DNA from: Alkalilimnicola ehrlichii MLHE-1
Lineage (GTDB): Bacteria > Pseudomonadota > Gammaproteobacteria > Nitrococcales > Halorhodospiraceae
Direction of reading: 5' to 3'
Length of the DNA: 32,000 nucleotides
NCBI RefSeq assembly: GCF_000014785.1
Contig: NC_008340.1
Location: 2,610,001-2,642,000 of the forward strand
Shown here: one piece after another, positions 2,194 through 20,491 of the stretch
How the letters are laid out: every line of letters starts with the position of its first letter
Numbering within the stretch: position 1 is the first letter of the stretch
Program-made: the position numbers and the translations under genes
Notes under the pieces: generated by a model
Database searches by the model: none
The model's input: the letters and a program-made list of their open reading frames with translations, nothing else
Told to the model about the DNA's origin: nothing

Positions 2194-2294
2194 GTCAGCC
2201 AAAACACAACGGCATCGGCATCAACACATATCGTCGCGTTATGCGCCAAACACGATACTATTGATTTATGCCTCATAGCACATAAACTATCATC

Positions 2295-2546
2295 ATGATC
2301 GATCTCGCCCGCACGCCGAAGCAGGTCGGCAACCTCATCCGTCGAAGCCGGAAGCAACAGGGCCTTACCCAACAAGCGCTTGGGGCGAAGGCCGGTTACC
2401 GGCAGGAGACCATCTCGCTCATCGAGAATGGCCATCCGGCCGCCAAGCTGGAAACCCTCCTGGCTATCCTCGCCGCGCTCGATCTCGAACTCCGGATCGC
2501 ACCACGCTCCAAGGGAAGCGCCGCTGACATCGAGGACCTCTTCTGA
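2295..2546 (+). CDS. hipB: XRE-family HTH antitoxin, HipB-like (83 aa)
   Basis: HTH core QQGLTQQALGAKAGYRQETISLIENG. Its stop overlaps the hipA start (TGATG). An AT-rich leader lies upstream (2216-2294). Confidence 0.8.
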   Translation: MIDLARTPKQVGNLIRRSRKQQGLTQQALGAKAGYRQETISLIENGHPAAKLETLLAILAALDLELRIAPRSKGSAADIEDLF

Positions 2547-3859: not shown

Positions 3860-3864
3860 GTGAA

Positions 3865-4296
3865 GGCTTCCCCCCGTCATCGCGAGGGCCGGAGGCCCGT
3901 GGCGATCCAGAGCGGTAGACTGCCACGTCGGCTTCGCCTCCTCGCAGTGACGGTGGGGGCGATTTTCCGCTTCCGGCACAGTCAAGTTCTTCAAGAGAGG
4001 GCCGGAGGCTTTCCCCCCCGTCATCGCGAGGGCCGAAGGCCCGTGGCGATCCAGGGCGGTAGACTGCCGCGTCGGCTTCGCCTCCTCGCAGTGACGGTGG
4101 AGGTAGCCTGCCGCTTCCTGCACCGCCCAGTTGTTCAAGAGTCCCGTAGGGGCGTGGCAGTTCAGGGCGGCGGGTGGATCGCCGCGTCGCTGCGCTCCTC
4201 GCGATGACGGGGAGGGGCTGCGCTCCTCGCGATGACGGGGAGGTGCTGCGCTCCTCGCGATGGCGGGGAGGGGCTGCGGGCCTCGCAATGGCGGGG
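3865..4296 (+). repeat. Hairpin-repeat array A2: 2 full units, two copies of a 37-bp insert module, then inverted type-B and short units
   Basis: Full units at about 3871-3958 and 4015-4098. TTCCGCTTCCGGCACAGTCAAGTTCTTCAAGAG sits at 3960-3997 with a diverged copy at 4099-4141. Reversed GGATCGCCGCGTCGCTGCGCTCCTCGCGATGACGGGG is followed by 28-bp reiterations to about 4296. Confidence 0.9.
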
Positions 4297-4437
4297 TGGT
4301 GGTGCTTTGGGCATCGCGGGGGCGGGGGCGTTTGCGGCGCGGAGGATGGTGCTATGATGCTCATAAGGTCGTGCATTTTTAGTATAAAATAGCTATATAG
4401 TGCACTTTTTCCGATCGCTCTACGGAGAACGAGCCCA

Positions 4438-5559: not shown

Positions 5560-5575
5560 GCCCACCTCAGCACCC

Positions 5576-5599
5576 GGCCCCGGGGGGTTCCCCGGGGCC
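5576..5599 (+). terminator. GC-rich hairpin downstream of the lipoprotein gene (possible terminator, no U-tract)
   Basis: GGCCCCGGGG-GGTT-CCCCGGGGCC, a perfect 10-bp stem 17 nt after the TAA stop. No T-run follows, so an intrinsic-terminator role is uncertain. Confidence 0.35.
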
Positions 5600-5654
5600 C
5601 GTGCCGACACCCTCACCGCATTCCAGCCTCAGTCCGGTACCGGTTCAACGGTCG

Positions 5655-5792
5655 CTATCGCCGCCGCGGCGGCCAGGCCAGGCTGAAGTCCCCGTCGTTA
5701 AAGGCCACCGGCAGGTCGGTCTCGTTCAGTCCGCCCACCGCCTGGTAGCGCTCGCGACGGACCACGAGACAGGCGGCGGTCACCGCCCAGTC
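5655..5792 (-). pseudogene. Internal fragment of a family-2 glycosyltransferase (45 codons between two stops)
   Basis: The minus-strand translation DWAVTAACLVVRRERYQAVGGLNETDLPVAFNDGDFSLAW matches the conserved GT2 block (xxACLxVRRxxxxxVGGxxExxxVAxNDxDxxL). It has no start and is bounded by TAG on both sides. Confidence 0.45.
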
Positions 5793-5840
5793 CTAGCACC
5801 ACGCCCCCGTGCTGCGGGCGCTGCACAAGGGGTGGCCGGG

Positions 5841-6227
5841 ATGATCAGCGTATCCATCGTCAGCCACCGCCACGGCACCATGGTGGCCCGGCTGGTCGAC
5901 GCCCTGCTGGCCCTGCCGGAGGTGGGTCAGGTGGTGCTCACCCTCAACCGCCCGGACTGGGTGGCGGGCCTGTTCATCCTGGTGCGGGCACCGGCCTACC
6001 AGGCGGTGGGCGGCTTCGACGAGGACTACTTCCTCCACTACGAAGACGTGGGCCTCTGCGCCCGCCTCTGGGCCGCCGGCCACCCGGTCGCCCTGGACTG
6101 CAACGTCAGCATCAGCCACGACGCCCAATACCGCAGCCACCGGGACCCCATCCACTTCCTCTGGCACGTCGGCAGCCTACTGCGCTACCTCCGCAAACAC
6201 CAAGGCGGCGCCCGCCGCCCGCAGTAA
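5841..6227 (+). pseudogene. Family-2 glycosyltransferase with a large internal deletion (128 aa left)
   Basis: The N-terminal GT2 start MISVSIVSHRHGTMVARLVDALLALPEVGQVVLTLN joins directly to the C-terminal block DWVAGLFILVRAPAYQAVGGFDEDYFLHYEDVGLCARLWAAGHPV. About 90-100 aa, including the DxD region, are missing. The stop lies in repeat-like sequence. Confidence 0.55.
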
Positions 6228-6244
6228 TCGCGGGGCACCACCTA

Positions 6245-6549
6245 CCCCGTCATCGCGAGGGCCGAAGGCTTTCTCCCCGTCATCGCGAGGGCCGAAGGCT
6301 TTCTCCCCGTCATCGCGAGGGCCGAAGGCCCGTGGCGATCCAGAGGGGTAGACTGCCACGTCGCTTCGCTCCTCGCAGTGACGGTGGGGGCGGATCCGCG
6401 CTCGCAGTGACAGTGGGGGGCGGATCCGCGCTCGCAGTGACAGTGGGGGGCCACCAACGCCCCGTCATCGCGAGGAGCGAAGCGACGCGGCGATCCACAC
6501 CCCGCCATGGACTGCCACGGCCCTACAGGGCACGCAGTGACGGTGGGCC
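6245..6549 (+). repeat. Hairpin-repeat array A3: 2 short 30-bp units, 1 full unit, 2 3'-arm units, 1 type-B unit
   Basis: CCGTCATCGCGAGGGCCGAAGGCTTTCTCC x2, then a full unit, GGCGGATCCGCGCTCGCAGTGACAGTGGGG x2, then CCGTCATCGCGAGGAGCGAAGCGACGCGGCGATCCACAC... A degenerate 3'-arm motif already begins at about 6219. Confidence 0.92.
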
Positions 6550-6606
6550 CGACACATGCCGTACAATACAAGCGTGGATGCCATACTCCCTGGGAGGCCC
6601 GGGACA

Positions 6607-6852
6607 ATGAAACAGGAAACGACCAAGATCACCATCCGTCTACCGCGACAAGACGTCGAGTTCGCCAAGGCCTACGCCAGGGCGCACGGCCTCAGCATGA
6701 CTGAAGTCATTGATCGTTACCTGCGTCGCCTGCGGGCGCTAGAGCGCCACCAGCCCAGCCCCGAACTGGACGCGATCACCGGCCTGCTGCCAGCCGACCT
6801 GGACGCTGAACAGGCGTACCGAGACCACTTAGTCGAGAAACATCGCCCGTGA
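6607..6852 (+). CDS. vapB: Ribbon-helix-helix-type antitoxin partner of the PIN toxin (81 aa)
   Basis: KITIRLPRQDVEFAKAYARAHGLSMTEVIDRYL is a typical RHH/CopG-like N-terminus. GGGAGG RBS lies at about 6591. The stop overlaps the vapC start (GTGA). ATG 6556 is an alternative start. Confidence 0.7.
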   Translation: MKQETTKITIRLPRQDVEFAKAYARAHGLSMTEVIDRYLRRLRALERHQPSPELDAITGLLPADLDAEQAYRDHLVEKHRP

Positions 6853-7250
6853 TCATGCTGGACCTGAACGTTCTTCTGGACGTTCTGCAAAAAAGGGCGC
6901 CGCATTATCAGGCATCCGCCGCCGTCCTCGAGCATGTCATCCACGGTGAAGAACAAGGCGCACTCAGCGCGCACGCAGTCACTACGGTTCACTACCTGGT
7001 GAGCCGGTACGCGACTCGCGCCGCGGCGGACGGCGCCCTGGATTGGCTTCTCCGGCACTTTCACGTGTGTGCAGTGGGCCGTGACGAACTGGAACAGGCC
7101 CGGTCCCTTGGCTGGCCCGACTTCGAGGACGCGGTTCTGGCATGTGTCGCGCAGAGTGCCGGGTGCAGCTACATCGTGACGCGAAATATCAAGGACTTCG
7201 AACGATCACCGGTAACGGCGTTAACGCCGCAGGAGTGGCTACTTCGCTGA
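6849..7250 (+). CDS. vapC: PIN-domain ribonuclease toxin VapC (133 aa)
   Basis: MLDLNVLLD (first acidic residue), WPDFEDAVLACVAQ and YIVTRNIKDF are typical PIN signatures. The gene is coupled to the upstream RHH gene. Confidence 0.85.
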   Translation: MIMLDLNVLLDVLQKRAPHYQASAAVLEHVIHGEEQGALSAHAVTTVHYLVSRYATRAAADGALDWLLRHFHVCAVGRDELEQARSLGWPDFEDAVLACVAQSAGCSYIVTRNIKDFERSPVTALTPQEWLLR

Positions 7251-7265
7251 GCTGAGTCCGAACCC

Positions 7266-7592
7266 TCCGTCATCGCGAGGGCCTCCTCCCCCGTCATCGC
7301 GAGGGCCGAAGGCTTTCCCCCCGTCATCGCGAGGGCCGAAGGCTTTCTCCCCGTCATCGCGAGGGCCGAAGGCCCGTGGCGATCCAGAGGGGTAGACTGC
7401 CACGTCGCTTCGCTCCTCGCAGTGACAGGGGGCGCACCCCCCGTCATCGCGAGGGCCGAAGGCCCGTGGCGATCCAGGGCGGTAGACTGCCACGTCGGCT
7501 TCGCCTCCTTGCAGTGACGGGGTGGCCCCTCCCCCGTCATCGCGAGGAGCGCAGCGACGCGGCGATCCATACCCCGGCATGGACTGCCACGC
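7266..7592 (+). repeat. Hairpin-repeat array A4: 3 short units, 2 full units, 1 type-B unit
   Basis: Same unit types as A3. The type-B end CCGTCATCGCGAGGAGCGCAGCGACGCGGCGATCCATACCCCGGCATGGACTGCCAC lies at about 7535-7592. Confidence 0.92.
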
Positions 7593-7666
7593 CCCTTCGT
7601 AGGCTTGCACAGCCAGTGTAAGGAACAACGGCTACGTTGAGATCAGGCCAAGGAAGACATATCATA

Positions 7667-8089
7667 ATGATAAGTCCCAAACCAAACGTAAGCGCCTTTG
7701 ATGGTTTCCCACCTACGGCGACTGAAGACCGCGCCATCCAGGGTGGGCCACTGTATCCGCCGGACACCGTGGTGGCGCTGGCGAGGGAAGAAGCGCTCGC
7801 TTTCTGGAGCCGAGGGGCTATTCGAGACGCAGAGAAGTGGGGGCTTGATGTCCCGAGCGCGTGTCAATTAGTGGTAATGGCCGTCCGGCACGGCCACTAC
7901 CTGGGCGCACAATGGTGCATCCAGGGGCCTCGCGGGCCATGGGCAGCCTGCGACGCCTACAAAGTCACGAATCACGAGTGGATCGAGCATGCCCATCGGC
8001 ACATACCGGTCACGTATTACCTGAAATTTTGTATCGCGAAGACCGGAGCAATGCTGCTTTCGGTCTCCAACCACCCGGAGGGTACCTGA
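7667..8089 (+). CDS. mqsR: MqsR-family toxin (about 140 aa)
   Basis: The C-terminal pattern ACDAYKV...YYLKFCIAKTGAMLLSVSNH parallels E. coli MqsR (WQDVYRP...VYLKITVIHDVLIVSFKE). It lies directly upstream of an MqsA-type antitoxin. AGGAAG RBS precedes ATG 7667; ATG 7637 is an alternative start. Confidence 0.7.
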   Translation: MISPKPNVSAFDGFPPTATEDRAIQGGPLYPPDTVVALAREEALAFWSRGAIRDAEKWGLDVPSACQLVVMAVRHGHYLGAQWCIQGPRGPWAACDAYKVTNHEWIEHAHRHIPVTYYLKFCIAKTGAMLLSVSNHPEGT

Positions 8090-8090
8090 C

Positions 8091-8705
8091 ATGACCCGGG
8101 GCACTCGCAACGCACTACGGCCCTGCCCCGCCTGTGGCGAGGGTCGCCTGGAGCCCAGGCAAACGACTCAGCGGGCGGAACATGCCGGCCTCAGCGAGGC
8201 AATCCCATTGCACTACGCCGTGTGCGACACCTGCGGATCCGAACTCGCAGAAGCCCCCGAGGCGAAAGCCAACAAGCGCGCCATGACCGCATTTCGCAAG
8301 CGCGCCGATGGCCTGCTCACCGGGGCGCAGATGCGGCAGGCCCGCAAAGCGCTGGGGCTTACGCAGGCGCAGGCCGCAAAGCTGTTCGGCGGCGGCCAAG
8401 TAGCCTTCTCCCGCTATGAGAACGACGACATCACGCAAAGCGAGGCCATGGACAGCCTGGTCCGCGTTTGCCTGGCCCAACCAGCCAACCTGACATTGCT
8501 GGCTGACCAAAAGGGCGTCTCAGCAATATTCACAACGGACGACAACTGGGCCAACGCACTCGTGCGGCGCCACATCCTTGGCATCAAGAGCGCCCTGGAG
8601 CACCAGATCGCCCCGGACCGCGTTGCCGAGCCAAGCCCTCAAGACCCCTTGAAGCGACACGCCAAAGTCATTGACATTCAGCGTTGGAGAAAAGCCGCAG
8701 CATGA
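8091..8705 (+). CDS. mqsA: MqsA-type antitoxin: N-terminal zinc ribbon, XRE HTH and a long C-terminal extension (204 aa)
   Basis: CPACGEG...CDTCGSE Cys4 ribbon, then LTGAQMRQARKALGLTQAQAAKLFGGGQVAFSRYENDD HTH. There are about 65-70 extra C-terminal residues relative to the 131-aa E. coli MqsA. Confidence 0.8.
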   Translation: MTRGTRNALRPCPACGEGRLEPRQTTQRAEHAGLSEAIPLHYAVCDTCGSELAEAPEAKANKRAMTAFRKRADGLLTGAQMRQARKALGLTQAQAAKLFGGGQVAFSRYENDDITQSEAMDSLVRVCLAQPANLTLLADQKGVSAIFTTDDNWANALVRRHILGIKSALEHQIAPDRVAEPSPQDPLKRHAKVIDIQRWRKAAA

Positions 8706-9139
8706 AAGCCAGCCCGCTGACCCTGCACGGGATCGAGTTCGTGCGCGTCCACGTAGAATCCGATCTCGAGGCGGAAACACGCCGTGCAGAGCAATTCCAG
8801 TTCGACGGCACCACTCTAAAGTGGGGGCTGGACCACGGTCGCGACGAGGATAACGGAACTTGGTGGGTGGCCGTTGGTTTCGGGACCCACCAAGAGGACG
8901 ACGAACCACGGTGTCCCTACATTTTGGATGTCCAGGCCGTCGGCATCGTTTCTGTCTCGGACCAGCTCCCCGAGAAAGACCACGAAAAACTCGCTTTCGA
9001 ATACGGCGCCGCCCTCGTCTACGGCGCCATTCGCGAGATGGTCACCAACATCACCGCCCGTAGCCTCGCCGGACCGCTAATGCTTCCCACGCCAAGCTTC
9101 ATCGGCGCACTGGAAACAAGAAAGCAGCCGGGCAACTGA
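8702..9139 (+). CDS. SecB-like chaperone (145 aa), third gene of a TAC-type locus
   Basis: ATGA overlap with mqsA. The pattern CPYILDVQAVGIVSV...FEYGAALVYGAIREMVTNITARSLAGPLMLPTPSF matches the SecB core (C..Q.GIF.....YP.ARE.I....SRG.FP.L.L.P.NF). Confidence 0.7.
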   Translation: MKASPLTLHGIEFVRVHVESDLEAETRRAEQFQFDGTTLKWGLDHGRDEDNGTWWVAVGFGTHQEDDEPRCPYILDVQAVGIVSVSDQLPEKDHEKLAFEYGAALVYGAIREMVTNITARSLAGPLMLPTPSFIGALETRKQPGN

Positions 9140-9160
9140 GAGACACCGCTTGCCTCCCCA

Positions 9161-9701
9161 CCCCGTCATCGCGAGGGCCGAAGGCTTTCCCCCCGTCATC
9201 GCGAGGGCCGAAGGCTTTCCCCCCGTCATCGCGAGGGCCGGAGGCCCGTGGCGATCCAGAGGGGTAGACTGCCGCGTCGGCTTCGCCTCCTCGCAGTGAC
9301 GGGGTGGCCCCTCCCCCCGTCATCGCGAGGGCCGGAGGCCCGTGGCGATCCAGGGCGGTAGACTGCCGCGTCGGCTTCGCCTCCTCGCAGTGACGGGGTG
9401 GCCCCTCCCCCCGTCATCGCGAGGGCCGGAGGCCCGTGGCGATCCAGGGCGGTAGACTGCCGCGTCGGCTTCGCCTCCTCGCAGTGACGGGGTGGCCCCT
9501 GCCCCGTCATCGCGAGGGCCGGAGGCCCGTGGCGATCCAGAGGGGTAGACTGCCGCGTCGGCTTCGCCTCCTCGCAGTGACGGGGTGGCCCCTCCCCCCG
9601 TCATCGCGAGGGCCGAAGGCCCGTGGCGATCCAGGGCGGTAGACTGCCGCGTCGGCTTCGCCTCCTCGCAGTGACGGGGTGGCCCCTCCCCCCGTCATCG
9701 C
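9161..9701 (+). repeat. Hairpin-repeat array A5: 2 short units, 5 full units, and a 6th unit cut after CCGTCATCGCA
   Basis: Full-unit starts at 9225, 9319, 9413, 9506 and 9600 (period 93-94). The last unit is truncated at 9701, where the hipB-like coding sequence begins. Confidence 0.93.
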
Positions 9702-9953
9702 AAGGGGTGGACCCAGGAAGAACTCGCTGAGCGAGTCGGCGTTGGCGTGATCACGATCCGCCGGGTTGCCAAGGGCTCCCCCCGGGTGGCCATCGGCACT
9801 TACTTTGAAGCGGCCGCACTGGTTGGGGTTTCACTGTTCACCGATGATCCGGACAGGCTCAAACGCGAGCATGCAACCCAGCAGGAACGGCTGACGCTGC
9901 TACCCAAGCGAGTCCGTCGTCAAACACCAGAGCCCCTCGACGATGATTTCTAG
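9702..9953 (+). pseudogene. 5'-truncated XRE/HipB-like antitoxin gene (N-terminus replaced by the repeat array)
   Basis: The frame reads ...KGWTQEELAERVGVGVITIRRVAKGSPRVAIGTYFEAAALVGVSL, i.e. helix 2-3 of an XRE HTH without helix 1 or a proper start. Only an internal GTG at 9747 is available. Confidence 0.6.
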
Positions 9954-10185
9954 CAACCGCGCTTATGTCTGGATCTGGCTGCCCGGCCAGACATCGCCTG
10001 TAGTAGCCGGACTTGTTGAGCGCGACGACCAAGACCGGTACCGCTTTGCCTATGGTCGGCGCTATCTGGCCCGTGAAGATGCAATCAGCCTGTATCCCGA
10101 CGAACTGCCCTGCTGTAGTCATCGCCGCCAGCGGCATGTGCGAATGACGAACCACGGCTTCCCCAGCATTTCCCTAACGGCCTGA
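9943..10185 (+). pseudogene. HipA N-terminal fragment (80 codons, homology lost after about 55 aa)
   Basis: AYVWIWLPGQTSPVVAGLVERDDQDRYRFAYGRRYLAREDAISLYPDELP is the HipA N-terminal subdomain pattern. The kinase core is absent. Confidence 0.65.
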
Positions 10186-10331
10186 AACATGCAGCAGCGG
10201 TGTTAGACTAAACCGAGGTCAAAACCCTCATCGCCACGTGGTGGATCAAAGGCCAGAACATTGCCCACGAGCCCCAGGAATACACAAGGCTCCGAGAAAA
10301 ATCGCCGTCCTCAAGAATTGCCCATGGAGAC

Positions 10332-10766
10332 ATGATGCGGACTCGAGCCCGCCCCAAAAGGAATTCCAAGCGCCGGCTACATCCTGAATTGACCGTCGAG
10401 CGGCGCCGGGCACTCGCCCAGTGTGTCAAATATGTCGGCAGCCCCTTGCACAAGCGCAACCCCGGTGATTTCGGGCTGACGCCGCCCGTTGCGGCCCGTC
10501 CCGGGAAGAGCCTGTGTGATGATGTCTCGATCTTCGAGCGAGACAAGGCTCAGGTGCTGCTGCGAGAGGGAGTGCAAGCGGGCCTTGTAAGCCGTGATGC
10601 CGACGAGGGCTTCCCGCGCCACATCTGGATGGTTCACGAAGGGCGAGTCATCGAGGCACGTTGTGACAACATGGAAGCCGGAACCTACCATGGCTACCCC
10701 CTGGAAGCCGACGATCCCATGGCCGATGCTGTAAAGCGCGAATGGAGCCGGAGGCAAGCAGAATGA
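10332..10766 (+). CDS. Hypothetical basic 144-aa protein, first gene of an unknown two-gene operon
   Basis: GGAGA RBS. Arg/Lys-rich N-terminus. Conserved-looking blocks YVGSPLHKRNPGDFGL and GTYHGYPL. Its stop overlaps the next start (ATGA). No family recognised with confidence. Confidence 0.6.
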   Translation: MMRTRARPKRNSKRRLHPELTVERRRALAQCVKYVGSPLHKRNPGDFGLTPPVAARPGKSLCDDVSIFERDKAQVLLREGVQAGLVSRDADEGFPRHIWMVHEGRVIEARCDNMEAGTYHGYPLEADDPMADAVKREWSRRQAE

Positions 10767-12097
10767 GCGATACCCTGCGATTCGACTGGGAGTGGCTGGC
10801 CTACCCAGAATTGCCTGCTGAAGAGGCTGTGACCTTTGCTGACCTGAGCATCCGGCTCAACGACAAGGCCATGACTCGCCTCTACGACGTGGCCGCCAAG
10901 ACCGAGCGCGACAACCTTTTCGCTGCCGCGTACCCGTTGGCTCAATTTCTAGCGGAAAACTGGTGGCGCATCCGCTGGGAGCCCGCGCCGGCCAGTCTTT
11001 CAAACGCGGGGCCACAGTGGCGTCTGGCGCATAACATCGCAGCCGCTGGTGCCGGCTATGTCTGGCCCAACATCACCTTCCACGGCGATGGCGAGCGGAT
11101 GTTCATGCACGTCGGACCCCACACCTCTGAGTCCTCCGCCGTGCAGTTCGTCTCGGAGGGAAATGGTGTGCTCGACGCCGCAATGTTCGAAGCAGAGGCC
11201 GATCGTTTCATGGAAGGCGTCTTGGCCCGACTGCAAGCCTGTGGCCACCCGGATACGGAGCTCGAACAGCTCTGGCGAGCGGTCCAGGCCGAGCGTTCCA
11301 GCAACGAAGACTGTGAGCGGCGGCGGCTGGAGGCCATGGCGGGCTTCGATCCCGACGAAGCGCCAGAGGCCATGCTGGACGAACTGTTGCAGCTCGAACA
11401 GCGCCTTGGGGTTTCAGCCATCCGAGAATTGGCTGCGGCCTCGCGGGCAAACACACTGGACCATGTGCGAACCCTGGAAGAGGCACTTTGTGCTCGGGGC
11501 CTTCGGTATCAGGTCCCGGATACGAGTCGAATGAGGATTGAATGGCCTGCCCCGCCATGGCGCAGGGCTGTCGAAGTCGCAAAGGCCGCTCGACAGGCCT
11601 GGGGCCTGAACAATGGCCCACTGGATAACACGCAGCTCGCCGCCATCGTGGATCTACCGCGCGAGCAGCTTGACTCTTCGGCACCTGAAGCAGTGCCCTA
11701 CAGCGCGAGCCTGCGCGGGGGGGAAGAGGGCGACAGACTAGTGTTCAGAACCGGCCATCGGCACGGACGCCGCTTCGCAATCGGTCGCCTGATGGGTGAC
11801 GCCTTCTACTCACCCGGGGAAGGGGGGGCACTGGCGGCCGCAACGGATGCCCGGACGGGACGCCAGAAGTTTCAGCGGGCCTTCGCGCAGGAGCTGCTGT
11901 GCCCATTCGAGGCATTGAGCGACTTTCTCAACCTGGGCCAGGACTGGGATGCATGTGACGATATCACCCCCCCGAACGAGGACCGCATCGAAGAGGCAGC
12001 GGAGTATTTCGACGTCTCACCGGTGCTCGTTCAGAGCACGCTTGTCAACCACAACGTCTTGCCCCGCGACGTACTCGAAATAACGGACGCCGCCTGA
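10763..12097 (+). CDS. Hypothetical 444-aa protein whose C-terminal region resembles an ImmA/IrrE (M78) domain lacking the HExxH motif
   Basis: GGAGG lies 8 nt upstream of ATG 10763. N-terminal block AAAYPLAQFLAENWWRIRWEP. The C-terminal GRRFAIGRLMGDAF...RQKFQRAFAQELLCPFEAL aligns with the M78 pattern RRFTLAHELGHLL...E.EANRFAAELLMP. Confidence 0.65.
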   Translation: MSDTLRFDWEWLAYPELPAEEAVTFADLSIRLNDKAMTRLYDVAAKTERDNLFAAAYPLAQFLAENWWRIRWEPAPASLSNAGPQWRLAHNIAAAGAGYVWPNITFHGDGERMFMHVGPHTSESSAVQFVSEGNGVLDAAMFEAEADRFMEGVLARLQACGHPDTELEQLWRAVQAERSSNEDCERRRLEAMAGFDPDEAPEAMLDELLQLEQRLGVSAIRELAAASRANTLDHVRTLEEALCARGLRYQVPDTSRMRIEWPAPPWRRAVEVAKAARQAWGLNNGPLDNTQLAAIVDLPREQLDSSAPEAVPYSASLRGGEEGDRLVFRTGHRHGRRFAIGRLMGDAFYSPGEGGALAAATDARTGRQKFQRAFAQELLCPFEALSDFLNLGQDWDACDDITPPNEDRIEEAAEYFDVSPVLVQSTLVNHNVLPRDVLEITDAA

Positions 12098-12121
12098 GAA
12101 CCCGAGGAGCCAAACAACACA

Positions 12122-12619
12122 CTGTCATCGCGAGGGCCGAAGGCTTTCCCCCGTCATCGCGAGCCCCCCACCCCGCTGCGCGGGCCCGAATCAACGAGGA
12201 ACGGGGCACCCCCGGTCATCGCGAGGGCCGAAGGCCCGTGGCGATCCAGGGCGGTAGACTGCCGCGTCGGCTTCGCCTCCTCGCAGTGACGGTGGGGGCG
12301 ACTTTCCGCTTCCGGCACAGTCAAGTTCTTCAAGAGGGCCGAAGGCCCGTGGCGATCCAGGGCGGTAGACTGCCACGTCGGCTTCGCCTCCTCGCAGTGA
12401 CGGGGTGGCCCCTCCCCCCGTCATCGCGAGGGCCGAAGGCCCGTGGCGATCCAGAGGGGTAGACTGCCACGTCGGCTTCGCCTCCTCGCAGTGACGGTGG
12501 GGATGGGGCCCCGCTCGCAGTGACGGTGTGGATGGGCCCCCGCTCGCAGTGACGGTGGGGGCGGGTCCGCTCCTCGCGGTGACGGTGGGGGCGGGTCCAC
12601 GCTTGCAGTGGCGATGAGG
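12122..12619 (+). repeat. Hairpin-repeat array A6: 1-2 short units, 3 full units (one carrying the 37-bp insert module), 4 3'-arm units
   Basis: Full units lie between about 12214 and 12495. TTCCGCTTCCGGCACAGTCAAGTTCTTCAAGAG is at 12300-12337. Reiterated GCTCGCAGTGACGGTGKGG-type units run from 12496 to 12619. Confidence 0.92.
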
Positions 12620-12648
12620 CACCACCACCCAAAAAGGAGAACACCACC

Positions 12649-14031
12649 ATGGACGACCCCACCCTCCTCCACCACGGCGGCGCTGACGGCGTCACCGGCA
12701 GTTGCCACCAACTCTACGCCAGCCCCGACCACTCACTCCTCATCGACTGCGGCCTCTTCCAAGGCGAAGACGCCGGCCCCGACCCCCTCGCCCAACACAC
12801 CGTCGACTTCGACGTCGACACCCTCCAGGCCCTCGTCCTCACCCACGTCCACATCGACCACGTCGGCCGGCTGCCCTACCTGCTGGCCGCCGGCTACCGC
12901 GGCCCCATCCTCTGCAGCCACCCCTCCGCCCACCTGCTGCCGCTGGTCATTGACGACGCCCTGCGCATCGGCTTCACCCGTGACGGCCAACTCATCGCGC
13001 GCTTCCAGCAGCAGGTCCAAAACCAACTGACCCCCCTCAAATACAGCCGCTGGCACACCGTCACCGACAACCGCCACCTCACCCTCAAGGTCCGCCTGGA
13101 GCGCGCCGGCCACATCCTCGGCTCCGCCTACGTCAAAGTCGCCATCCGGGACAAACGCACCGGCCGCACACACCGCACCGTCTTCTCAGGCGACCTGGGC
13201 GCCCCCGGCTCGCCGCTGCTGCCCGCCCCGCAATCGCCCCACCACGCCGACCTCCTCGTCCTGGAGGCCACCTACGGCGACCGCAGCCACGAAAACCGCG
13301 ACCAGCGCCGCCACCGCCTGCGCCAGGCCATCGAACACGCCGTGCAGGACGGCGGCACCGTCATCATCCCCGCCTTCAGCATCGGCCGCACCCAGGTGCT
13401 GCTCCACGAGCTGGAAGCGCTCACCCACACCGCCCAAGGCCCCTGGCGCCACCTGCGCATCATCGTCGACTCCCCCCTGGCCGCCCGCTTCAACCGCGTC
13501 TACCGCCGCCTGAAACCCTACTGGGACCAAGAGGCCAGAAAACGGGCCCGACAAGGCCGCCACCCCCTCAACTTCAGCCGCCTGCACACCGTCGACAGCC
13601 ACGCCCAACACCAACACACCGTCACCACCCTGGCCCAGGGCGGCCACCCGGCCGTGGTCATCGCCGCCAGCGGCATGTGCGCCGGCGGCCGCGTCGTCAA
13701 CTACCTGAAAGCCATGCTCGGCGACCCACGCCACCACGTGCTGTTCGTCGGCTACCAAGCGGAAGGCACCCCCGGGCGGGACATCCAGCGCTACGGCCCA
13801 ACCGGCGGCTGGGTAGACCTGGACGGAGAACGGTTCGACATCCGCGCCGGCGTCACCACCATCGGCGGCTACTCCGCCCATGCAGACCAACAGGACCTAC
13901 TGCGGTTCGTACAACAGATGAAGCGCCCACCCGGCACCATCCGACTGGTGCACGGCAGCGCCCGCGCCCGGGAGACACTGGCCAACGCCCTCACCCGGCA
14001 GGGCCATACCGTGACCCAGGGAGGGTCATGA
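12649..14031 (+). CDS. Beta-CASP family metallo-beta-lactamase-fold nuclease (RNA-metabolising MBL hydrolase), 460 aa
   Basis: AAAGGAGAA RBS. LLIDCGLFQG, HxHxDH motif LTHVHIDHVGRLPYL, later SGDLG, IPAFSIGRTQ, GYSAHADQ and RLVHGS, typical of beta-CASP enzymes. Confidence 0.85.
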   Translation: MDDPTLLHHGGADGVTGSCHQLYASPDHSLLIDCGLFQGEDAGPDPLAQHTVDFDVDTLQALVLTHVHIDHVGRLPYLLAAGYRGPILCSHPSAHLLPLVIDDALRIGFTRDGQLIARFQQQVQNQLTPLKYSRWHTVTDNRHLTLKVRLERAGHILGSAYVKVAIRDKRTGRTHRTVFSGDLGAPGSPLLPAPQSPHHADLLVLEATYGDRSHENRDQRRHRLRQAIEHAVQDGGTVIIPAFSIGRTQVLLHELEALTHTAQGPWRHLRIIVDSPLAARFNRVYRRLKPYWDQEARKRARQGRHPLNFSRLHTVDSHAQHQHTVTTLAQGGHPAVVIAASGMCAGGRVVNYLKAMLGDPRHHVLFVGYQAEGTPGRDIQRYGPTGGWVDLDGERFDIRAGVTTIGGYSAHADQQDLLRFVQQMKRPPGTIRLVHGSARARETLANALTRQGHTVTQGGS

Positions 14032-14076
14032 CTTCAGAGGCCCGGCACTCCCGCCACGGCGGGGCCCCGCCCCCTC

Positions 14077-14399
14077 CCCCGTCACTGCGAGCGCCGAAGG
14101 GGCGTGACAGTCCATACGGCGTGTGGATCGCCGCGTCGCTTCGCTCCTCGCGATGACGGGGGCGGCGCCCCCACCGTCACCGCGAGAGCGGACCCGCCCC
14201 CACCGTCACTGCGGGCGGGGGCCCATCCACACCGTCACTGCGAGGAGGCGAAGCCGACGTGGCAGTCTACCCCTCTGGATCGCCACGGGCCTTCGGCCCT
14301 CGCGATGACGGGGGAAAGCCTTCGGCCCTCGCGATGACGGGGGAAAGCCTTCGACCCTCGCGATGACGGTGAGAAAGCCCTCGGCCCTCACGATAACGG
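14077..14399 (-). repeat. Hairpin-repeat array A7, inverted orientation: type-B, 3 3'-arm units, 1 full unit, 4 short units as read on the + strand
   Basis: Reverse complements of all unit types are present, e.g. GGAGGCGAAGCCGACGTGGCAGTCTACCCCTCTGGATCGCCACGGGCCTTCGGCCCTCGCGATGACGGGGG and GAAAGCCTTCGGCCCTCGCGATGACGGGG reiterated. Confidence 0.9.
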
Positions 14400-14514
14400 A
14401 AGCACCACCCCCAACTAATCCTTCCGATAGGTTGCACCGCACCATCCCCCATGCTTTACTCCCTAACATCGTTCACCCAGTGAACGACACAACCCTTCGC
14501 ACCCCCCAAGGATG

Positions 14515-14560
14515 GCCGTGCCACCGCATGTCATCCTTGCGGTAGCGTGCCCGAAAGCCG
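14515..14560 (+). repeat. Left copy of the 46-bp direct repeat flanking the ATPase/DUF4276 module
   Basis: GCCGTGCCACCGCATGTCATCCTTGCGGTAGCGTGCCCGAAAGCCG, 45/46 identical to 16355-16400. Confidence 0.9.
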
Positions 14561-14657
14561 GCACCAGGATATGAAAGCAGACGGCTCCCAAACGACATGC
14601 GACAAGGTTTTGGGACCCTACACGTATTGAGGCACACCGAATGAAGGGACTGATTCA

Positions 14658-15788
14658 ATGACATCGGAATCGGACCTGTGTAGCCGAATTTCACGCGTGA
14701 GCATCCGCGGGTTCCGTAGCCTAGCCTGTGTCGAGAACCTTGAGCTCCCGCAACTAGCGGTCCTGATTGGGGCAAACGGATCGGGCAAATCCAACCTCAT
14801 CCGATTCTTCGAGATGCTGAGCTACTCGCTCAAGGGCCGGAACCTTCAGCAGTTCGTGATCGAAAAAGGGGGCGGTGACGACCAGCTCTTTTTCGGAGCG
14901 CGGACCACGTCCCGCCTGGAAGCAGAGATCGCGCTGGAGACTGAGCAGGGCACCAATGAGTACCGGATGGCCCTGACCCACGTCGCACCAGACTCCCTGG
15001 CCTTCGCCGAAGAGGCTTTCCGGTTCTCCCGGCACGACCGCGAAGGCAGCAGCGACTGGATTCACCTCCCCATGCCGGCTCAGGAATCGGGCCTGCCGGT
15101 GGCCGCAGCGGATAGTGGTCAGCGGTCGCGGCGCACAGCACGCACGCTCCTTTACCTGCTGCGCAACTGCGCCACCTTCCAGTTTCATGACACCTCGGCA
15201 AAGGCCAGTCTGAACATGCGCTGGGATGAGAGCGAAAACGCACGCATGCGCTCGGATGGCGGAAACCTGGCCCCCATACTGCTGCATCTTTCTCAGGAGC
15301 ATCCCCGGCGTTACCGGCTCATCACGCGGCAGATTCAACGCGTTCTCCCCGTGTTCGAAGACTTCGACCTGCAATCGACGGGGGGCAAGGTGTTGCTGCG
15401 CTGGCGCGCCCGAAACAGCGACAACACCTTCGGGCCGCATCTGACATCGGACGGCTCGCTGCGACTGTTTTGCCTATTCACCCTGCTCAATCTGCCGGGG
15501 GAAATGCTCCCGGACGTACTCATGATCGACGAACCGGAACTGGGCCTTCATCCGCACGCTATCGCCCTGACCGCCGATATGCTCAAGAGCCTCTCCGTCC
15601 ATCGGCAAGTCTTCATCGCCACCCAGTCACCACTGATGGTCGACGCCTTCGACGTGGATAACATCCTCGTCGCCAGCCTGAAAGACGGCGCAACAGACCT
15701 GACGCCCATGGACCGTGACGAATACCGGGTCTGGCTTGAAAGCGGCTACCAGCCCTCGGATCTATGGCTCAAAGAACCGGTGGGCTGA
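14658..15788 (+). CDS. AAA_21/ABC-type (SMC-like) ATPase, 376 aa, defence-associated type
   Basis: Walker A LIGANGSGKSNL close to the N-terminus, distal Walker B LLMIDEPELGLHP and signature-like TSDGSLR. This split-ABC architecture is typical of OLD/AbiL/PARIS-type ATPases. Confidence 0.85.
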   Translation: MTSESDLCSRISRVSIRGFRSLACVENLELPQLAVLIGANGSGKSNLIRFFEMLSYSLKGRNLQQFVIEKGGGDDQLFFGARTTSRLEAEIALETEQGTNEYRMALTHVAPDSLAFAEEAFRFSRHDREGSSDWIHLPMPAQESGLPVAAADSGQRSRRTARTLLYLLRNCATFQFHDTSAKASLNMRWDESENARMRSDGGNLAPILLHLSQEHPRRYRLITRQIQRVLPVFEDFDLQSTGGKVLLRWRARNSDNTFGPHLTSDGSLRLFCLFTLLNLPGEMLPDVLMIDEPELGLHPHAIALTADMLKSLSVHRQVFIATQSPLMVDAFDVDNILVASLKDGATDLTPMDRDEYRVWLESGYQPSDLWLKEPVG

Positions 15789-15791
15789 GTG

Positions 15792-16354
15792 ATGAGTTCC
15801 AGTGTTCGATTGCTTGTGGTCTGCGAGGGACAGACAAGGGCGGAGGAAACGTCAACATCGAGCGACTGGCTATCCACCTGGCCAACGAATACCCCAACCA
15901 TGACTTTGTCACCACGTTGGTCGACCTCTACGGGTTCAGTGACCGGGAAGGACGAAGTCGGACAGAGCTTGAAGAGGCCATCCGCGAAGCCGTCCTAAGC
16001 CGTCGTCGAGACATTCAGACGGATAGAGTCATCCCGTATGTGCAGCAGTATGAATTCGAAGCGCTGCTGTTCAGCGATATTCAGGGTTTTCAATGGGTGG
16101 TTGATGGCTGGTCCACTGGGGCAGAGCGCCAACTTCAGAGCATCGTCGATAATTACTCGGACCCCGAGCAAATCAACGACAACCCGACCACCGCGCCCTC
16201 GAAACGCCTGGAAGCCATCTTCCGCGGTTACTATCGGAAGACCGAACATGGCCCGATCATTGCCGAAGAAATCGGGTTGGCAGTGATCCGCAGTCAGTGC
16301 CCAGGCTTCGACGGTTGGATAACCAAACTGGAAGGCCTTAATCGACCGCGTTAA
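15792..16354 (+). CDS. DUF4276-family (TOPRIM-like) protein interrupted by an apparent single-base frameshift near 15849-15851
   Basis: The N-terminal hallmark MSSSVRLLVVCEGQTRAEET is in frame 3 (15792-15851). The rest, VNIERLAIHLANEYPNHDFVTTLVDLYGF...EFEALLFSD...PSKRLE, is in frame 2 to TAA 16354. The only frame-2 ATG (15764) overlaps the ATPase gene and lacks the VxCEGxTE block. Confidence 0.7.
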
Positions 16355-16400
16355 GCCGTGCCACCGCATGTCATCCTTGCGGTAGCGTGCTCGAAAGCCG
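16355..16400 (+). repeat. Right copy of the 46-bp direct repeat, starting immediately after the DUF4276 stop
   Basis: GCCGTGCCACCGCATGTCATCCTTGCGGTAGCGTGCTCGAAAGCCG. Confidence 0.9.
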
Positions 16401-16433
16401 ACCCCACACGTCACCGGGGGCCCCACACCCTCA

Positions 16434-16628
16434 CCCCGTCAATGCGAGCCCCGAACCCTTCACCCTCGTCACTGCGAGCCCCCGAAGGGGGCGCGGCAGT
16501 CCACCGCCCTGGATCGCCACGGGCCTTCGGCCCTCGCGATGACGGGGGAAAGCCTTCGGCCCTCACGATGACGGGGTGATGCCTCCCCACCGGCCCTGCG
16601 AACCGCCAAAAGGGGCGCGGCAGTCCAC
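16434..16628 (-). repeat. Hairpin-repeat array A8, inverted and degenerate (about 1 full unit plus arm units), abutting the glycan locus
   Basis: CCCTCGTCACTGCGAGCCCCCGAAGGGGGCGCGGCAGTCCACCGCCCTGGATCGCCACGGGCCTTCGGCCCTCGCGATGACGGGGG plus GAAAGCCTTCGGCCCTCACGATGACGGGG. It ends 5 nt before ATG 16633. Confidence 0.8.
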
Positions 16629-16632
16629 AACC

Positions 16633-16956
16633 ATGACCCGCGAAGAAATCCAATTCCGCATCCTGCGCCTACTCCAGGACAACCCCCAGCTCAGCCAGCG
16701 CGACCTGGCCGCCGAGCTGGGCGTCTCGGTGGGCAGCACCCACTACTGCCTGCGCGCGCTGGTGGACAAAGGCTGGGTCAAGGCCAACAACTTCGCCAAG
16801 AGCACCCGCAAGACACGCTACCTGTACCAGCTCACCCCCAGCGGCATCGCCGAGAAGGCAGCGCTGACACGCCGCTTCCTAAAGCGAAAGCGCGAGGAAT
16901 ACCAGGCCATCCGGGCCGAGATCGCTGAGCTGGAAAAGGACCTGAAAGACCAGTAA
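16633..16956 (+). CDS. MarR-family EPS-associated transcriptional regulator (107 aa)
   Basis: MTREEIQFRILRLLQDNPQLSQRDLAAELGVSVGSTHYCLRALVDKGWVK...YLYQLTPSG is a winged-helix pattern typical of the EPS-locus MarR subfamily. The upstream part of the ORF (from 16576) lies in repeat sequence. Confidence 0.8.
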   Translation: MTREEIQFRILRLLQDNPQLSQRDLAAELGVSVGSTHYCLRALVDKGWVKANNFAKSTRKTRYLYQLTPSGIAEKAALTRRFLKRKREEYQAIRAEIAELEKDLKDQ

Positions 16957-17019
16957 CGCCGCCGACGCAGCAAGAGCCGCCACCGTCCAACCGCGCGGCA
17001 CACAGTGCAAAGAGGAGAA

Positions 17020-18123
17020 ATGGTGTCCTTCACGTCCATTAATTGGCCCAACCGCATCCTGGTCACCGGCGGGGCCGGCTTCATCGGCTCGGCGCTGGTC
17101 CGCCAGCTCATTGCCGAGACCGACAGCACCGTCATCAACGTCGATGCCCTCACCTACGCCGGCAACCCCGAATCCCTGGCAGAGGCCCGCCACCATCCGC
17201 GCCATGTCTTCGAGCAGGAGGACATTCGCAACCGCCCCGCGTTGGACCGCCTCTTCCGCGAACACCGCCCCGACGCCGTCATGCACCTGGCCGCGGAATC
17301 CCACGTGGACCGCTCCATCGAGGGCCCCGCCGCCTTCATCGAGACCAACGTCACCGGCACCCAGAACCTGCTGGAAGCGGCCCGGGAATACTGGCAGGCA
17401 CTGGAGCCGGCGGCCCGGGAGCGCTTCCGCTTCCACCACATCTCCACGGACGAGGTCTACGGCGACCTGGGCCCCAACGACCCGGCCTTCACCGAAGAGA
17501 CCCCCTACGCCCCCAGCTCGCCCTACTCGGCCAGCAAGGCCGGCAGTGACCACTTGGTCCGCGCCTGGCACCACACCTACGGCCTGCCCGTACTGCTCAC
17601 CAACTGCTCCAACAACTACGGCCCCTACCAGTTCCCGGAAAAGCTCATCCCCCTGATGATCCTCAATGCCCTCGAAGGCAAGCCCCTGCCGGTGTACGGC
17701 CAGGGCGACAACGTCCGCGACTGGCTGCACGTGGAGGATCACGCCCAGGCACTGCGCCGGGTGCTCGAAGCCGGCCGGCCCGGGCGCACCTACAACATCG
17801 GGGGCCGGGCGGAGCGCACCAACCTGGAAGTCGTCCACGCCATCTGCGCGCATCTGGACGAACTGCGCCCCCGTCCATCCGGCCGGCACGAGGCGTTAAT
17901 CCAATTCGTAACAGACCGCCCCGGCCATGATCGGCGCTACGCCATCGACGACAGCCGGATCAGCCAGGAACTCGACTGGCAGCCGCAGGAGAGCTTCGAA
18001 TCGGGCCTGCGCCGAACCGTCGAGTGGTACCTGGAGAACACCGAGTGGGTGCAGCGGGTGCAAAGCGGCGCCTACCGGGAATGGCTGGAGACCAACTACG
18101 GCCATCGCGGGGTGGCCGAATGA
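17020..18123 (+). CDS. rfbB: dTDP-glucose 4,6-dehydratase
   Basis: [23 protein letters not shown] Rossmann motif, [19 protein letters not shown] and [15 protein letters not shown] (YxxxK). Confidence 0.92.
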
Positions 18124-19040
18124 GGACACTGCTCTTCGGCCCCAATGGACAGGTGGGCTGGGAACTGCGCCGTTCGCTGGCGCCCCTGGGGGAGCTGATC
18201 CCCCTCGGCCGTCACGAATGGCAGGGCCTGCGGGGCGATCTCACCGACAAGGATGCCATCGCCCACGCCATCCGCTCACTGCGCCCGGATCTCATCGTGA
18301 ACGCGGCGGCCTACACCGCCGTGGACCAGGCCGAGTCCGAACCCGAACAAGCGCGGCTGATCAACGCCACCGCACCCGGCGTCATGGCCGAGCTCGCCCG
18401 CGAGCAGCAAGCCCTGTTCATCCACTACTCCACGGACTACGTCTTCGACGGCAGCGGCGACCGCCCGTGGCACGAGGACGACCCAACGGCCCCCTTAAAT
18501 GTCTATGGCCAGACCAAGCGGGAAGGCGAGGAGGCCGTTCGCGCCGCGGACGGCCACCACCTCATCTTCCGCACCGCCTGGGTCTATGCCGCCCGGGGCC
18601 ACAACTTCATCCGCACCATGATCCGCCTGGCTTGCCAACGCGACACCCTGCAAGTCATCAACGACCAGCACGGCGCACCCACCGGGGCGGAACTCATCGC
18701 CGACGTCACGGCGCACGCCGCACGCACCGCATCAACCCGCCCCGACCTGCGCGGCACCTACCACCTGACCGCCGCCGGCGAGACCACCTGGCACGGGTAC
18801 GCCCGCTTCGTCATCGAACAGGCCCGCGCGGGCGGCGCACCCGTACGCGTCGCCCCGGAGGCCATCGAAGCCGTCGCTACCGACGCCTTCCCCACGGTCG
18901 CCCGCCGCCCGCACAACTCACGGCTGGACGGTCACAAGCTGGAAACCACCTTCGGCCTAAAGCGCCCCGACTGGCGCAGCGGCGTCGCCCGGGCGCTACA
19001 GGAAATGGACATCTCGCACACCCAGGGGAGGCCCGACTGA
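18120..19040 (+). CDS. rfbD: dTDP-4-dehydrorhamnose reductase
   Basis: ATGA overlap with rfb[38 protein letters not shown] and YGQTKREGE are typical RmlD motifs. Confidence 0.9.
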
Positions 19041-19921
19041 TGAACCGCAAGGGCATCATCCTGGCCGGGGGCAGCGGCACGCGACTGCATCCGGCCACGC
19101 TTGCCATCAGCAAGCAACTACTGCCAGTCTACGACAAGCCGATGATCTACTACCCGCTCAGCACCCTGATGCTGGCGGGTATTCGCGATATCCTCATCAT
19201 CTCCACCCCGCAGGACACCCCGCGCTTCGAGCAACTGCTGGGCGATGGCGAGCAGTGGGGGCTTAACCTGAACTACGCCGTGCAACCCTCGCCGGACGGT
19301 CTGGCCCAGGCGTTCATCATCGGCGAGGCGTTCATCGGCGACGACCCCTGCGCCCTGGTCCTGGGCGACAACATCTTCTACGGCCACCATTTCGACGAGC
19401 TGCTCGGCAACGCCATGGAACGCGAGGACGGCGCAACGGTCTTCGCCTACCACGTCCACGACCCGGAACGCTACGGCGTGGCCGAGTTCGACCGCGACGG
19501 CAAGGTGCTCTCCCTGGAGGAAAAGCCCGAGCGACCGAAATCCAGCTACGCCGTCACCGGCCTGTACTTCTACGACAACGACGTGGTCGACATGGCGAAG
19601 GATCTAAAGCCCTCCGCCCGCGGCGAGCTGGAGATCACCGACCTCAACATCGCCTACATGAACGCCGGCAAGCTCGACGTGGCGATCATGGGCCGCGGCT
19701 ACGCCTGGCTGGACACTGGCACGCACGACTCCCTGCTGGACGCCAGCCAGTTTATCGCCACCCTCGAACACCGCCAGGGCCTTAAGGTCGCCTGCCCGGA
19801 AGAGATTGCCTACCGCCGCGGCTGGATCACCGCCGAGACCCTTGAGGGCCTGGCCCAACCGCTGCTCAAAAACGGCTACGGCCAATACCTCCGGCGCGTG
19901 CTGCAAGACACCGTATTCTGA
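19040..19921 (+). CDS. rfbA: Glucose-1-phosphate thymidylyltransferase
   Basis: [54 protein letters not shown] is nearly canonical RmlA. The start overlaps the rfbD stop by 1 nt. Confidence 0.95.
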
Positions 19922-19942
19922 TCCGACCACGGCAAGGACATC

Positions 19943-20491
19943 ATGCAATTCATTCCCACCGCCATCCCCGACGTTATCCTCGTCAAACCCGACGTGTTCG
20001 GCGACGAGCGCGGCTTCTTCATGGAAACCTGGCAGCGGCGCAAGTTCGCCGAGGGTGGCATCGACCACGACTTCGTGCAGGACAACCACAGCCGCTCCGT
20101 AAAGGGCACCCTGCGCGGCCTGCACTACCAGATCCGCCAGCCGCAGGGGAAGCTCGTGCGCGTGACCGCCGGCTCGGTCTTCGACGTGGCAGTGGACCTG
20201 CGCCGGGGCTCCCCCACCTTCGGTCAGTGGGCGGGTGAACACCTCTCGGCAGACAACCACCACATGCTCTGGGTGCCGCCGGGTTTCGCCCACGGCTTCT
20301 ACGTCACCTCCGAGACGGCGGATTTTCAGTACAAGTGCAGCGACTACTATGCGCCCGAGCACGAGCACTGCATCCGCTGGGACGACCCGGAGCTCGGGAT
20401 AGACTGGCCGCTTTCGGATAACGGCGCGCCGCTGGTCTCCGAAAAGGACCGCCAGGGCCTGGCCTTCGCGCAGGCGGAGTACTTCGATTGA
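19943..20491 (+). CDS. rfbC: dTDP-4-dehydrorhamnose 3,5-epimerase
   Basis: FGDERGFFMETW, RGLHYQ, KLVRVTAGSVFDVAVDLR and WVPPGFAHGF are RmlC signatures. Confidence 0.95.
   Translation: MQFIPTAIPDVILVKPDVFGDERGFFMETWQRRKFAEGGIDHDFVQDNHSRSVKGTLRGLHYQIRQPQGKLVRVTAGSVFDVAVDLRRGSPTFGQWAGEHLSADNHHMLWVPPGFAHGFYVTSETADFQYKCSDYYAPEHEHCIRWDDPELGIDWPLSDNGAPLVSEKDRQGLAFAQAEYFD

Follow-up and report, generated by a model that had tools for sequence, protein, structure and literature searches.

Where it has been studied, the ops element works on the non-template strand: it makes RNA polymerase pause and loads RfaH, a paralogue of NusG, and RfaH then suppresses both pausing and Rho termination over the length of long operons, which are often foreign. 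An ops-type motif is described here within a 46-bp direct repeat (the 46-mer) that brackets a two-gene defence-type module in the genome of Alkalilimnicola ehrlichii MLHE-1, an ectothiorhodospiraceal haloalkaliphile. The window is the whole stretch of 32,000 nucleotides (nt) that was analysed (contig NC_008340.1, positions 2,610,001 to 2,642,000, forward strand); it was also placed on the A. ehrlichii chromosome CP183314.1 at about 2,696,072-2,728,071. Coordinates are those of the window unless another locus is named. The module consists of an ABC ATPase gene and a DUF4276 gene and is followed by a surface-polysaccharide operon that begins with marR_EPS and rmlBDAC.

The ops element is found within JUMPStart sequences, which are common in the regulatory DNA of genes that RfaH activates; the first descriptions came from polysaccharide gene clusters (PMC6775461). 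In the E. coli element of 12 nt (ops12, GGCGGTAGCGTG) the bases G4, G5, A7 and G8 are essential for the recruitment of RfaH, and C3, T6, T11 and G12 are important, C3 and T6 contributing to recruitment and T11/G12 to the pause (PMC5995543).

The closest described relative of the module is HEC-01 (Hma-embedded candidate 01), a pair made up of an ABC ATPase with a TOPRIM-like DUF4276 protein, of which a representative gave no protection in published E. coli assays (bioRxiv 10.1101/2024.01.29.577857). DUF4276 belongs to the TOPRIM superfamily, with the catalytic glutamate on the β1-α1 loop (PMC12065111).

A foreign insertion has its junctions at the two copies of the 46-mer. The favoured explanation, to which a probability of roughly 0.6 is given, is that these copies are the ops-bearing distal end of a conserved polysaccharide-operon leader, duplicated around an inserted HEC-01 module, and not a dedicated att or cassette recombination site.

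The direct repeat and its ops-type motif

The 46-mer, GCCGTGCCACCGCATGTCATCCTTGCGGTAGCGTGC(C/T)CGAAAGCCG, is present twice on the forward strand (Table 1), its copies agreeing at 45 of 46 positions with a single C/T mismatch at position 37, and a match of this kind was found in 0 of 100 shuffles. A preliminary description, made from the letters alone, had reported this repeat, its close fit to the module and a small hairpin (ACCGCA-n9-TGCGGT) within it, and all three are confirmed: 97 nt separate the left copy from the ATPase start codon (ATG at 14658), the right copy begins one base past the TAA stop codon (16352-16354) of the DUF4276 open reading frame (ORF), and the hairpin is present.

Each copy contains tGCGGTAGCGTG, which shares 11 of 12 bases with ops12; positions 2-12 are those of the consensus and G1 is the sole difference, so that every base critical for RfaH loading and pausing is retained. 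The exact 11-mer GCGGTAGCGTG occurs in the window only at the two 46-mers. Both motifs lie on the coding (non-template) strand, and the right one sits 244 nt 5' of the marR_EPS ATG, ahead of marR_EPS-rmlBDAC. The likeness to enteric ops and JUMPStart thus extends from the bases for RfaH binding and the TG pause to the strand and to the position in the untranslated leader of a polysaccharide cluster, where the motif is part of the most conserved stretch. The locus differs from the enteric cases (waa, rfb, kps, hly, tra) in its haloalkaliphilic host, in which RfaH is a candidate only, in a box upstream of the motif (CGTTCA-n5-TGAACG-n-CACAACC), and in the duplication of the element around an inserted defence-type module.

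The leader that carries the left motif was recognised in two further loci. L179, the nearest available relative of the beta-CASP nuclease gene upstream of the module (88% nucleotide identity), has the box at 1776-1800. L003 has it at 4920-4943, followed by the canonical GGCGGTAGCGTGCCC (ops at 4986), at 1.9 kb downstream of a related module. Box and ops are invariant across the three lineages; the distance between them is 45 nt in both the window and L179, and the composite pattern box-n30-60-GCGGTAG was found in these three loci only among 179 fetched. The conserved core of the leader can be written CATGTCATCCTTGCGGTAGCGTGCCCGAAA. In Oceanisphaera (L024) the same extended motif, GCGGTAGCGTGCCC, lies 46 nt 5' of a wzz-glycosyltransferase unit, and the beta-CASP locus of Arhodomonas, the next relative, showed neither synteny nor ops. 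Promoter-like hexamers are equally placed relative to the box in L179 (TTGCAG-18-TTAAAT) and in L003 (TTGACG-17-TAAAAT, near consensus), and a putative sigma-70-type promoter is placed at the head of the leader. The perfect palindrome CGTTCA-n5-TGAACG with its CACAACC sits directly after the putative -10 hexamer. Its invariance in the three lineages and its lack of covariation suggest an operator at which a protein, possibly the MarR_EPS regulator, would bind to control the polysaccharide operon.

The hairpin of the 46-mer, with five of six pairs in L179, none in L003 and fold z-scores of -0.6 to -2.6, was rejected as a functional structure. A consensus scan found neither a sigma-70 promoter nor an intrinsic terminator within the 46-mer. 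No tRNA was found, and the region 14350-14700 has no Rfam match; a known RNA, tRNA or tmRNA integration target was discarded, the only match (a togavirus frameshift element, E=0.95) being noise.

The preliminary description had allowed for the 46-mer being a common dispersed repeat, and the window is saturated with REP-like arrays that also bracket the module. Against a REP- or MITE-like origin, or a chance similarity, stand the shuffles, Smith-Waterman z-scores of about 0 for the 46-mer against all arrays, and the absence of a third copy across the window with up to 19 mismatches tolerated. In a self-BLAST of the window the pair is the sole significant repeat beyond the REP-like arrays, bar one 25-nt match. 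The core of the 46-mer moreover gave 0 matches in genome, metagenome and viral collections, the source genome being absent from the genome collection or masked in it, as judged from the rmlB-like neighbour, which found distant loci only (best 77%); the patterns used for genomes and metagenomes held lineage-specific 5' bases, by which copies like that of L179 are undetectable. A dispersed repeat or chance is extremely improbable.

Table 1. Features of the module, its flanks and the adjoining operon head, in window coordinates
Feature	Position	Strand	Details
REP-like array A1, 29-nt and hairpin units	14071..14400	.	between beta-CASP gene and leader
Putative sigma-70-type promoter	14432..14460	+	predicted from hexamers TTGCAC (14432-14437) and TTTACT (14455-14460), 17-nt spacer
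Conserved leader box, candidate operator or 5' leader element	14470..14494	+	CGTTCA-n5-TGAACG, then n-CACAACC
Left 46-mer, 3' end of conserved leader	14515..14560	+	ops-like tGCGGTAGCGTG at 14538-14549
Leader 5' of ATPase, unique to this genome	14561..14657	+	97 nt, GC 0.52; unlike the leaders of L002, L174 and L176
HEC-01A-type ABC ATPase, 376 aa	14658..15788	+	Pfam AAA_21 6e-27; PADLOC HEC-01A 6.1e-110
HEC-01B/DUF4276 (TOPRIM-like) pseudogene	15792..16354	+	95-nt deletion at 15835/15836
Right 46-mer, partial leader duplicate without promoter and box	16355..16400	+	ops-like motif at 16378-16389
REP-like array A2, collinear with A1 (129 nt, 84%)	16401..16632	.	from right 46-mer to marR_EPS start
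Polysaccharide operon head	16633..20491	+	MarR_EPS (16633-16956), rmlB, rmlD, rmlA, rmlC

Relatives of the locus and the origin of the duplication

L179 carries the leader in a single copy, its positions 1776-1865 aligning with 14470-14559 of the window, and continues after about 30 nt into the gene for UDP-glucose 6-dehydrogenase (ugd), with no module between. A block of 32 nt (14525-14556) that includes ops is identical in the two, where the surrounding DNA is about 85-88% identical. The alignment of L179 to the left junction covers the upstream segment and the 46-mer, whereas at the right junction it covers the 46-mer alone (92% identity to 1828-1865 of L179), and every junction homology stops at one common 3' boundary. 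Over its first 11 nt the 46-mer differs between L179 and the window, whose two copies agree there, and this dates the duplication to after the separation from L179. The claim of the preliminary description that the repeats mark the ends of an insertion is upheld by this single copy without a module and by the low GC content at third codon positions (GC3) of the module. The empty site that it had proposed to look for was found in part: a single copy without the module exists, in a related organism and not in an isogenic strain. A strain-level empty site was not found among the contigs with the exact proteins, all of which represent one strain and are broken at the repeat.

The order observed at the locus is putative promoter, box, ops, module, ops, REP-like array and marR_EPS-rmlBDAC. 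On the favoured explanation, promoter, palindromic box, about 45 nt and ops would form a leader that heads polysaccharide operons (of exopolysaccharide (EPS) or O-antigen type) in this lineage. The A. ehrlichii lineage would have acquired a segment of 1.8 kb, comprising the 97-nt leader, HEC-01A and HEC-01B, inserted exactly at the 3' boundary of the operon leader so that the last 46 nt of the latter were left on either side. The repeat would then be an insertion footprint that consists of a regulatory element, and the module would probably be co-transcribed as promoter-proximal cargo of the polysaccharide operon, each transcription unit keeping its own ops. The duplication may have arisen by RecA-dependent, Campbell-type integration of a circular fragment on which a copy of the leader was present, by a template switch during replication at the pause site of ops, or by the joining of donor and recipient leader copies, and all three routes are compatible with the data. 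Since then the module has decayed, the gene of the TOPRIM effector being frameshifted by a slippage deletion of 95 nt.

The preliminary description had gone further and taken the repeat for an att duplication or a cassette-borne recombination site, a claim that finds no support here. The copies would in that case be attL and attR of a small, site-specifically integrating cassette of 1.84 kb that could be excised and reinserted by a recombinase acting in trans. The resemblance is real, as near-identical direct repeats of tens of bp lie exactly at both ends of a foreign two-gene unit and a relative has a single copy without the module; a Logan contig (L001) that starts and ends in the repeat adds little, since an assembler with k=31 does so at any repeat. 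However, no tyrosine or serine recombinase is present in the 32 kb: integrase and resolvase domains were found neither in the ORFs scanned across the window nor in the precomputed Pfam list of L085, and the sole mobility genes of the window are those of an IS3-type OrfA/OrfB (DDE) transposase at 29.6-31.1 kb, 13 kb away. Inspection revealed no integron attC cores, and with neither AAC nor GTT in the 46-mer and no integrase in the window an integron attC was rejected; terminal inverted repeats are likewise absent. Segment 14401-14660 has no BLASTN match in plasmids or phages and the 46-mer core none in viral contigs, on which grounds a phage or plasmid attP was discarded; the core is equally missing from the genome and metagenome collections. 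None of four assemblies contains an alternative junction.

The related modules bear on the same question. From metagenomes 80 further ATPase loci were gathered, 53 of which were scored for the best direct repeat between flanks of 400 nt. In 52 of the 53 the scores (7-13) equal those of shuffled controls, compared with 43 (46-mer) and 70 (REP-like arrays) in the window, and flanking repeats as a trait of the HEC-01 family were accordingly dismissed. The 46-mer is absent from the related modules L002, L003, L004 and L174-L178, in which similarity to the DNA of the window runs from exactly the ATPase ATG to a point about 20 nt short of the DUF4276 stop codon; the relatives share a conserved leader of their own 5' of the ATPase ATG, which the window lacks. 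Thus, unlike an att site, the repeat does not accompany the module in other genomes, has no recombinase beside it and can be identified in its own right as a regulatory leader that is conserved in the host, which makes a self-mobile cassette very unlikely. It is best read as the ops segment of an operon leader, duplicated around the insert, and would then be an insertion footprint. The one locus that departs from the controls, L121, has a repeat of 23/25 nt (1-25 and 2264-2288) at the edge of a 2.3-kb contig.

The main rival to the favoured explanation is that two operon heads were fused, the ops leaders of which were nearly identical, either as paralogues or through a tandem duplication, and that a later deletion removed the second promoter and box and left the last 46 nt abutting the DUF4276 stop codon. 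Polysaccharide regions may hold more than one ops leader, as in L024, where ops lies between rmlBDAC and the wzz unit, and in the closest relatives the module is already in or beside polysaccharide loci (after ugd in L002 and L004, 5' of box and ops in L003). The abundance of REP-like arrays could promote rearrangements, and the 95-nt deletion demonstrates that the locus undergoes deletions. However, at least two events would be needed, with a deletion endpoint exactly one base past a stop codon, and the 32 kb contain no other copy of the leader. With a single difference in 46 positions and lineage-specific bases common to their first 11 nt, the copies are better accounted for by a recent single duplication than by old paralogues, so that a fusion of operon heads is considered unlikely, if less so than the other alternatives.

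Several observations weigh against a duplicated ops leader. RfaH remains bound once loaded, which makes a second ops mechanistically unneeded, and the retention of the right copy may for this reason be neutral. The single-copy site belongs to a different organism, with 88% nucleotide identity in the neighbouring gene; there the downstream gene is ugd and not marR, and the contig ends inside ugd. The Rfam JUMPstart model found no match to the leader, whether its gathering threshold, E<=1 or E<=10 was applied, and in its upstream half the leader does not resemble the enteric JUMPStart of 39 bp, a different conserved box standing in its place. The promoter hexamers of the window are weak and fall under the threshold of the consensus scan. 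Copies were counted in the window, and more 46-mers at other A. ehrlichii polysaccharide loci are possible. Finally, RfaH is mainly gammaproteobacterial and patchy outside the Enterobacteriaceae (PMC7593976).

With the favoured explanation, what appeared to be the signature of a mobile element (an attL/attR-like repeat) is reassigned to a duplicated ops-type regulatory leader, and recognisable ops leaders, with a distinct upstream box, are extended to haloalkaliphilic Ectothiorhodospiraceae. The locus would furthermore be a tangible example of a surface-polysaccharide operon with a candidate anti-phage module built into its promoter-proximal part, and, should ops work here, the module would be expressed via the antitermination route that RfaH gives to horizontally acquired operons. 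It is tempting to generalise that ops-bearing polysaccharide leaders act as capture sites for small defence modules, either by offering a short portable homology for the RecA-mediated integration of circles or by provoking a template switch at the strong ops pause, but this is quite doubtful. If it were true, newly captured foreign genes would come directly under antitermination of the RfaH type, with the 46-bp duplication as the footprint of the capture, and the presence of the HEC-01 clade at polysaccharide heads (window, L002, L003, L004) would reflect a preference and not shared ancestry.

This association with polysaccharide genes is confined to the closest clade, namely these same four loci. 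The modules of L002 (4073-5866) and L004 (6010-7830) follow ugd, and that of L003 (1212-3038) lies 1.9 kb 5' of the leader with box and ops. An extension to the whole family (33-55% identity) was rejected, as 54 distant loci have heterogeneous neighbours.

The HEC-01 module and its broken DUF4276 gene

The ATPase gene is apparently intact; its product can be aligned over the whole length with 25 homologues and has all the residues that are invariant in the alignment, Walker A included. Public annotation gives it 324 aa from a start past Walker A, and the 376-aa ORF from 14658 aligns over its full length. The 97 nt between the left 46-mer and the ATPase gene have no match in plasmids or phages and no similarity to the ATPase leader shared by L002, L174 and L176. 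The preliminary description had recognised an ABC-ATPase/TOPRIM-like pair of defence type, which proved correct as a candidate defence pair: both proteins match the HEC-01 profiles best (HEC-01A at 6e-110, HEC-01B at 1.7e-141), and the ATPase-DUF4276 pairing is kept in 66 of 78 related loci.

PARIS (AriA/AriB), AbiL (AbiLi/AbiLii) and the Mad3/Mad4 pair of MADS share this architecture, in which an AAA_15/21-type ABC ATPase is followed by a small TOPRIM partner; the AbiL partner, AbiLii, is RloB-like. The profiles of these systems score the ATPase far below HEC-01A, with 1.8e-25 for AriA, 2.6e-19 for AbiLi and 4.5e-22 for mad3/MAD3 in PADLOC, and the NCBIfam model of MAD3 (1.8e-29) stays under its cut-off. 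AbiL, to which the preliminary description had inclined, is therefore not the best assignment, and the DUF4276 partner has no PADLOC match to AbiLii. The same description had stated correctly that PARIS uses DUF4435 (PMC11464382). The partner here is DUF4276, and an identity as PARIS was rejected on this ground and on the AriA score. The module differs from HEC-01 itself in lying within a polysaccharide-operon leader, not within Hma, and in the frameshift of its B gene.

The DUF4276 gene is a pseudogene, as it carries a frameshifting deletion of 95 nt. The match of Pfam DUF4276 to the ORF does not begin until profile position 36; one frame holds the N-terminal 15 codons (MSSSVRLLVVCEGQT), and what follows, from 15836, is in another. 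Compared with L002, L003 and L004 (about 78% nucleotide identity by BLASTN) 95 nt are missing, and in the protein alignment 31 codons and 2 nt are lost directly after CEGQT with a shift of frame. In L003 the segment that the window has lost is flanked by an 8-nt repeat (GGGCAGAC), an arrangement typical of a slippage deletion. The broken ORF is present in four independent assemblies (the NCBI chromosome and three short-read assemblies), so a sequencing error is not the cause. As a result of the deletion the loop with the catalytic glutamate is no longer joined to the rest of the TOPRIM domain. For users of the A. ehrlichii genome the practical consequence is that its HEC-01B gene should be flagged as a pseudogene. 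One PADLOC profile for HEC-01B, PDLC04186 (196 positions), matches residues 1-196 of the frameshifted ORF (window 15764-16354) with 466 bits, including the out-of-frame N-terminal 24 residues, so that the product of this pseudogene seems to have served as the basis of the profile.

GC3 is 0.75 in the ATPase gene and 0.64 in the DUF4276 gene, against 0.89 in the beta-CASP gene and 0.86 in marR, and the module resembles the modules of its relatives in this respect. By composition the module is foreign and was in all likelihood acquired horizontally; its sequence is that of a candidate defence system in decay. In L176 (508-4305), and also in L177 and L178, a HEC-01 module with 83% identity stands directly 5' of a gene for a 604-aa OLD-like ATPase-TOPRIM protein, so that two ABC-ATPase/TOPRIM systems follow each other in tandem.

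The surrounding island and the polysaccharide cluster

The DNA upstream of the leader is an island of toxin-antitoxin and defence type that encodes HipA, PIN with DUF6364, MqsA-like and ParA-like proteins, the beta-CASP nuclease and several unknowns. All its intergenic gaps are filled by REP-like arrays, in which the periods are 28-30 nt and about 94-95 nt, and larger arrays bracket the module directly outside the 46-mers (14166-14400 and 16401-16632). Within 1491-16635 the arrays span about 1491-2200, 3776-4330, 6238-6560, 7259-7600, 9125-9810, 12114-12625, 14071-14400 and 16401-16632; they comprise up to five tandem copies with 96% identity and change orientation near 14120. Inverted arms of 149 nt (12415-12563 and 14166-14314, 93%) stand on either side of the beta-CASP gene, and the same REP-like family lies 5' of the beta-CASP gene in L179 (143-263).

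The 25-nt match found by self-BLAST is a perfect direct repeat with one copy in an intergenic region (10118-10142) and the other within the beta-CASP coding sequence (13657-13681), the latter being conserved in L179 (1304-1327). The same-strand pairs 4438-5559 with 5601-6227 and 10332-10766 with 10763-12097 gave no Pfam or PADLOC match, for which reason a second ATPase-DUF4276 module at 4438-6227 was rejected; both pairs are candidates for uncharacterised two-gene systems.

Downstream of the module, MarR_EPS is identified by NCBIfam TIGR04176 with 160 bits (cut-off 88), and rmlB, rmlD and rmlC are assigned by equivalogs. The polysaccharide cluster continues to about 29.4 kb with an ABC exporter, sugar-modifying genes, NeuB and a sulfotransferase. 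The IS3-family genes OrfA (HTH_Tnp_1) and OrfB (rve) lie on the reverse strand at 29600-31146, within the polysaccharide cluster, and adjoin segments of low GC content (0.46-0.48) at about 28-29.5 kb and 31-32 kb.

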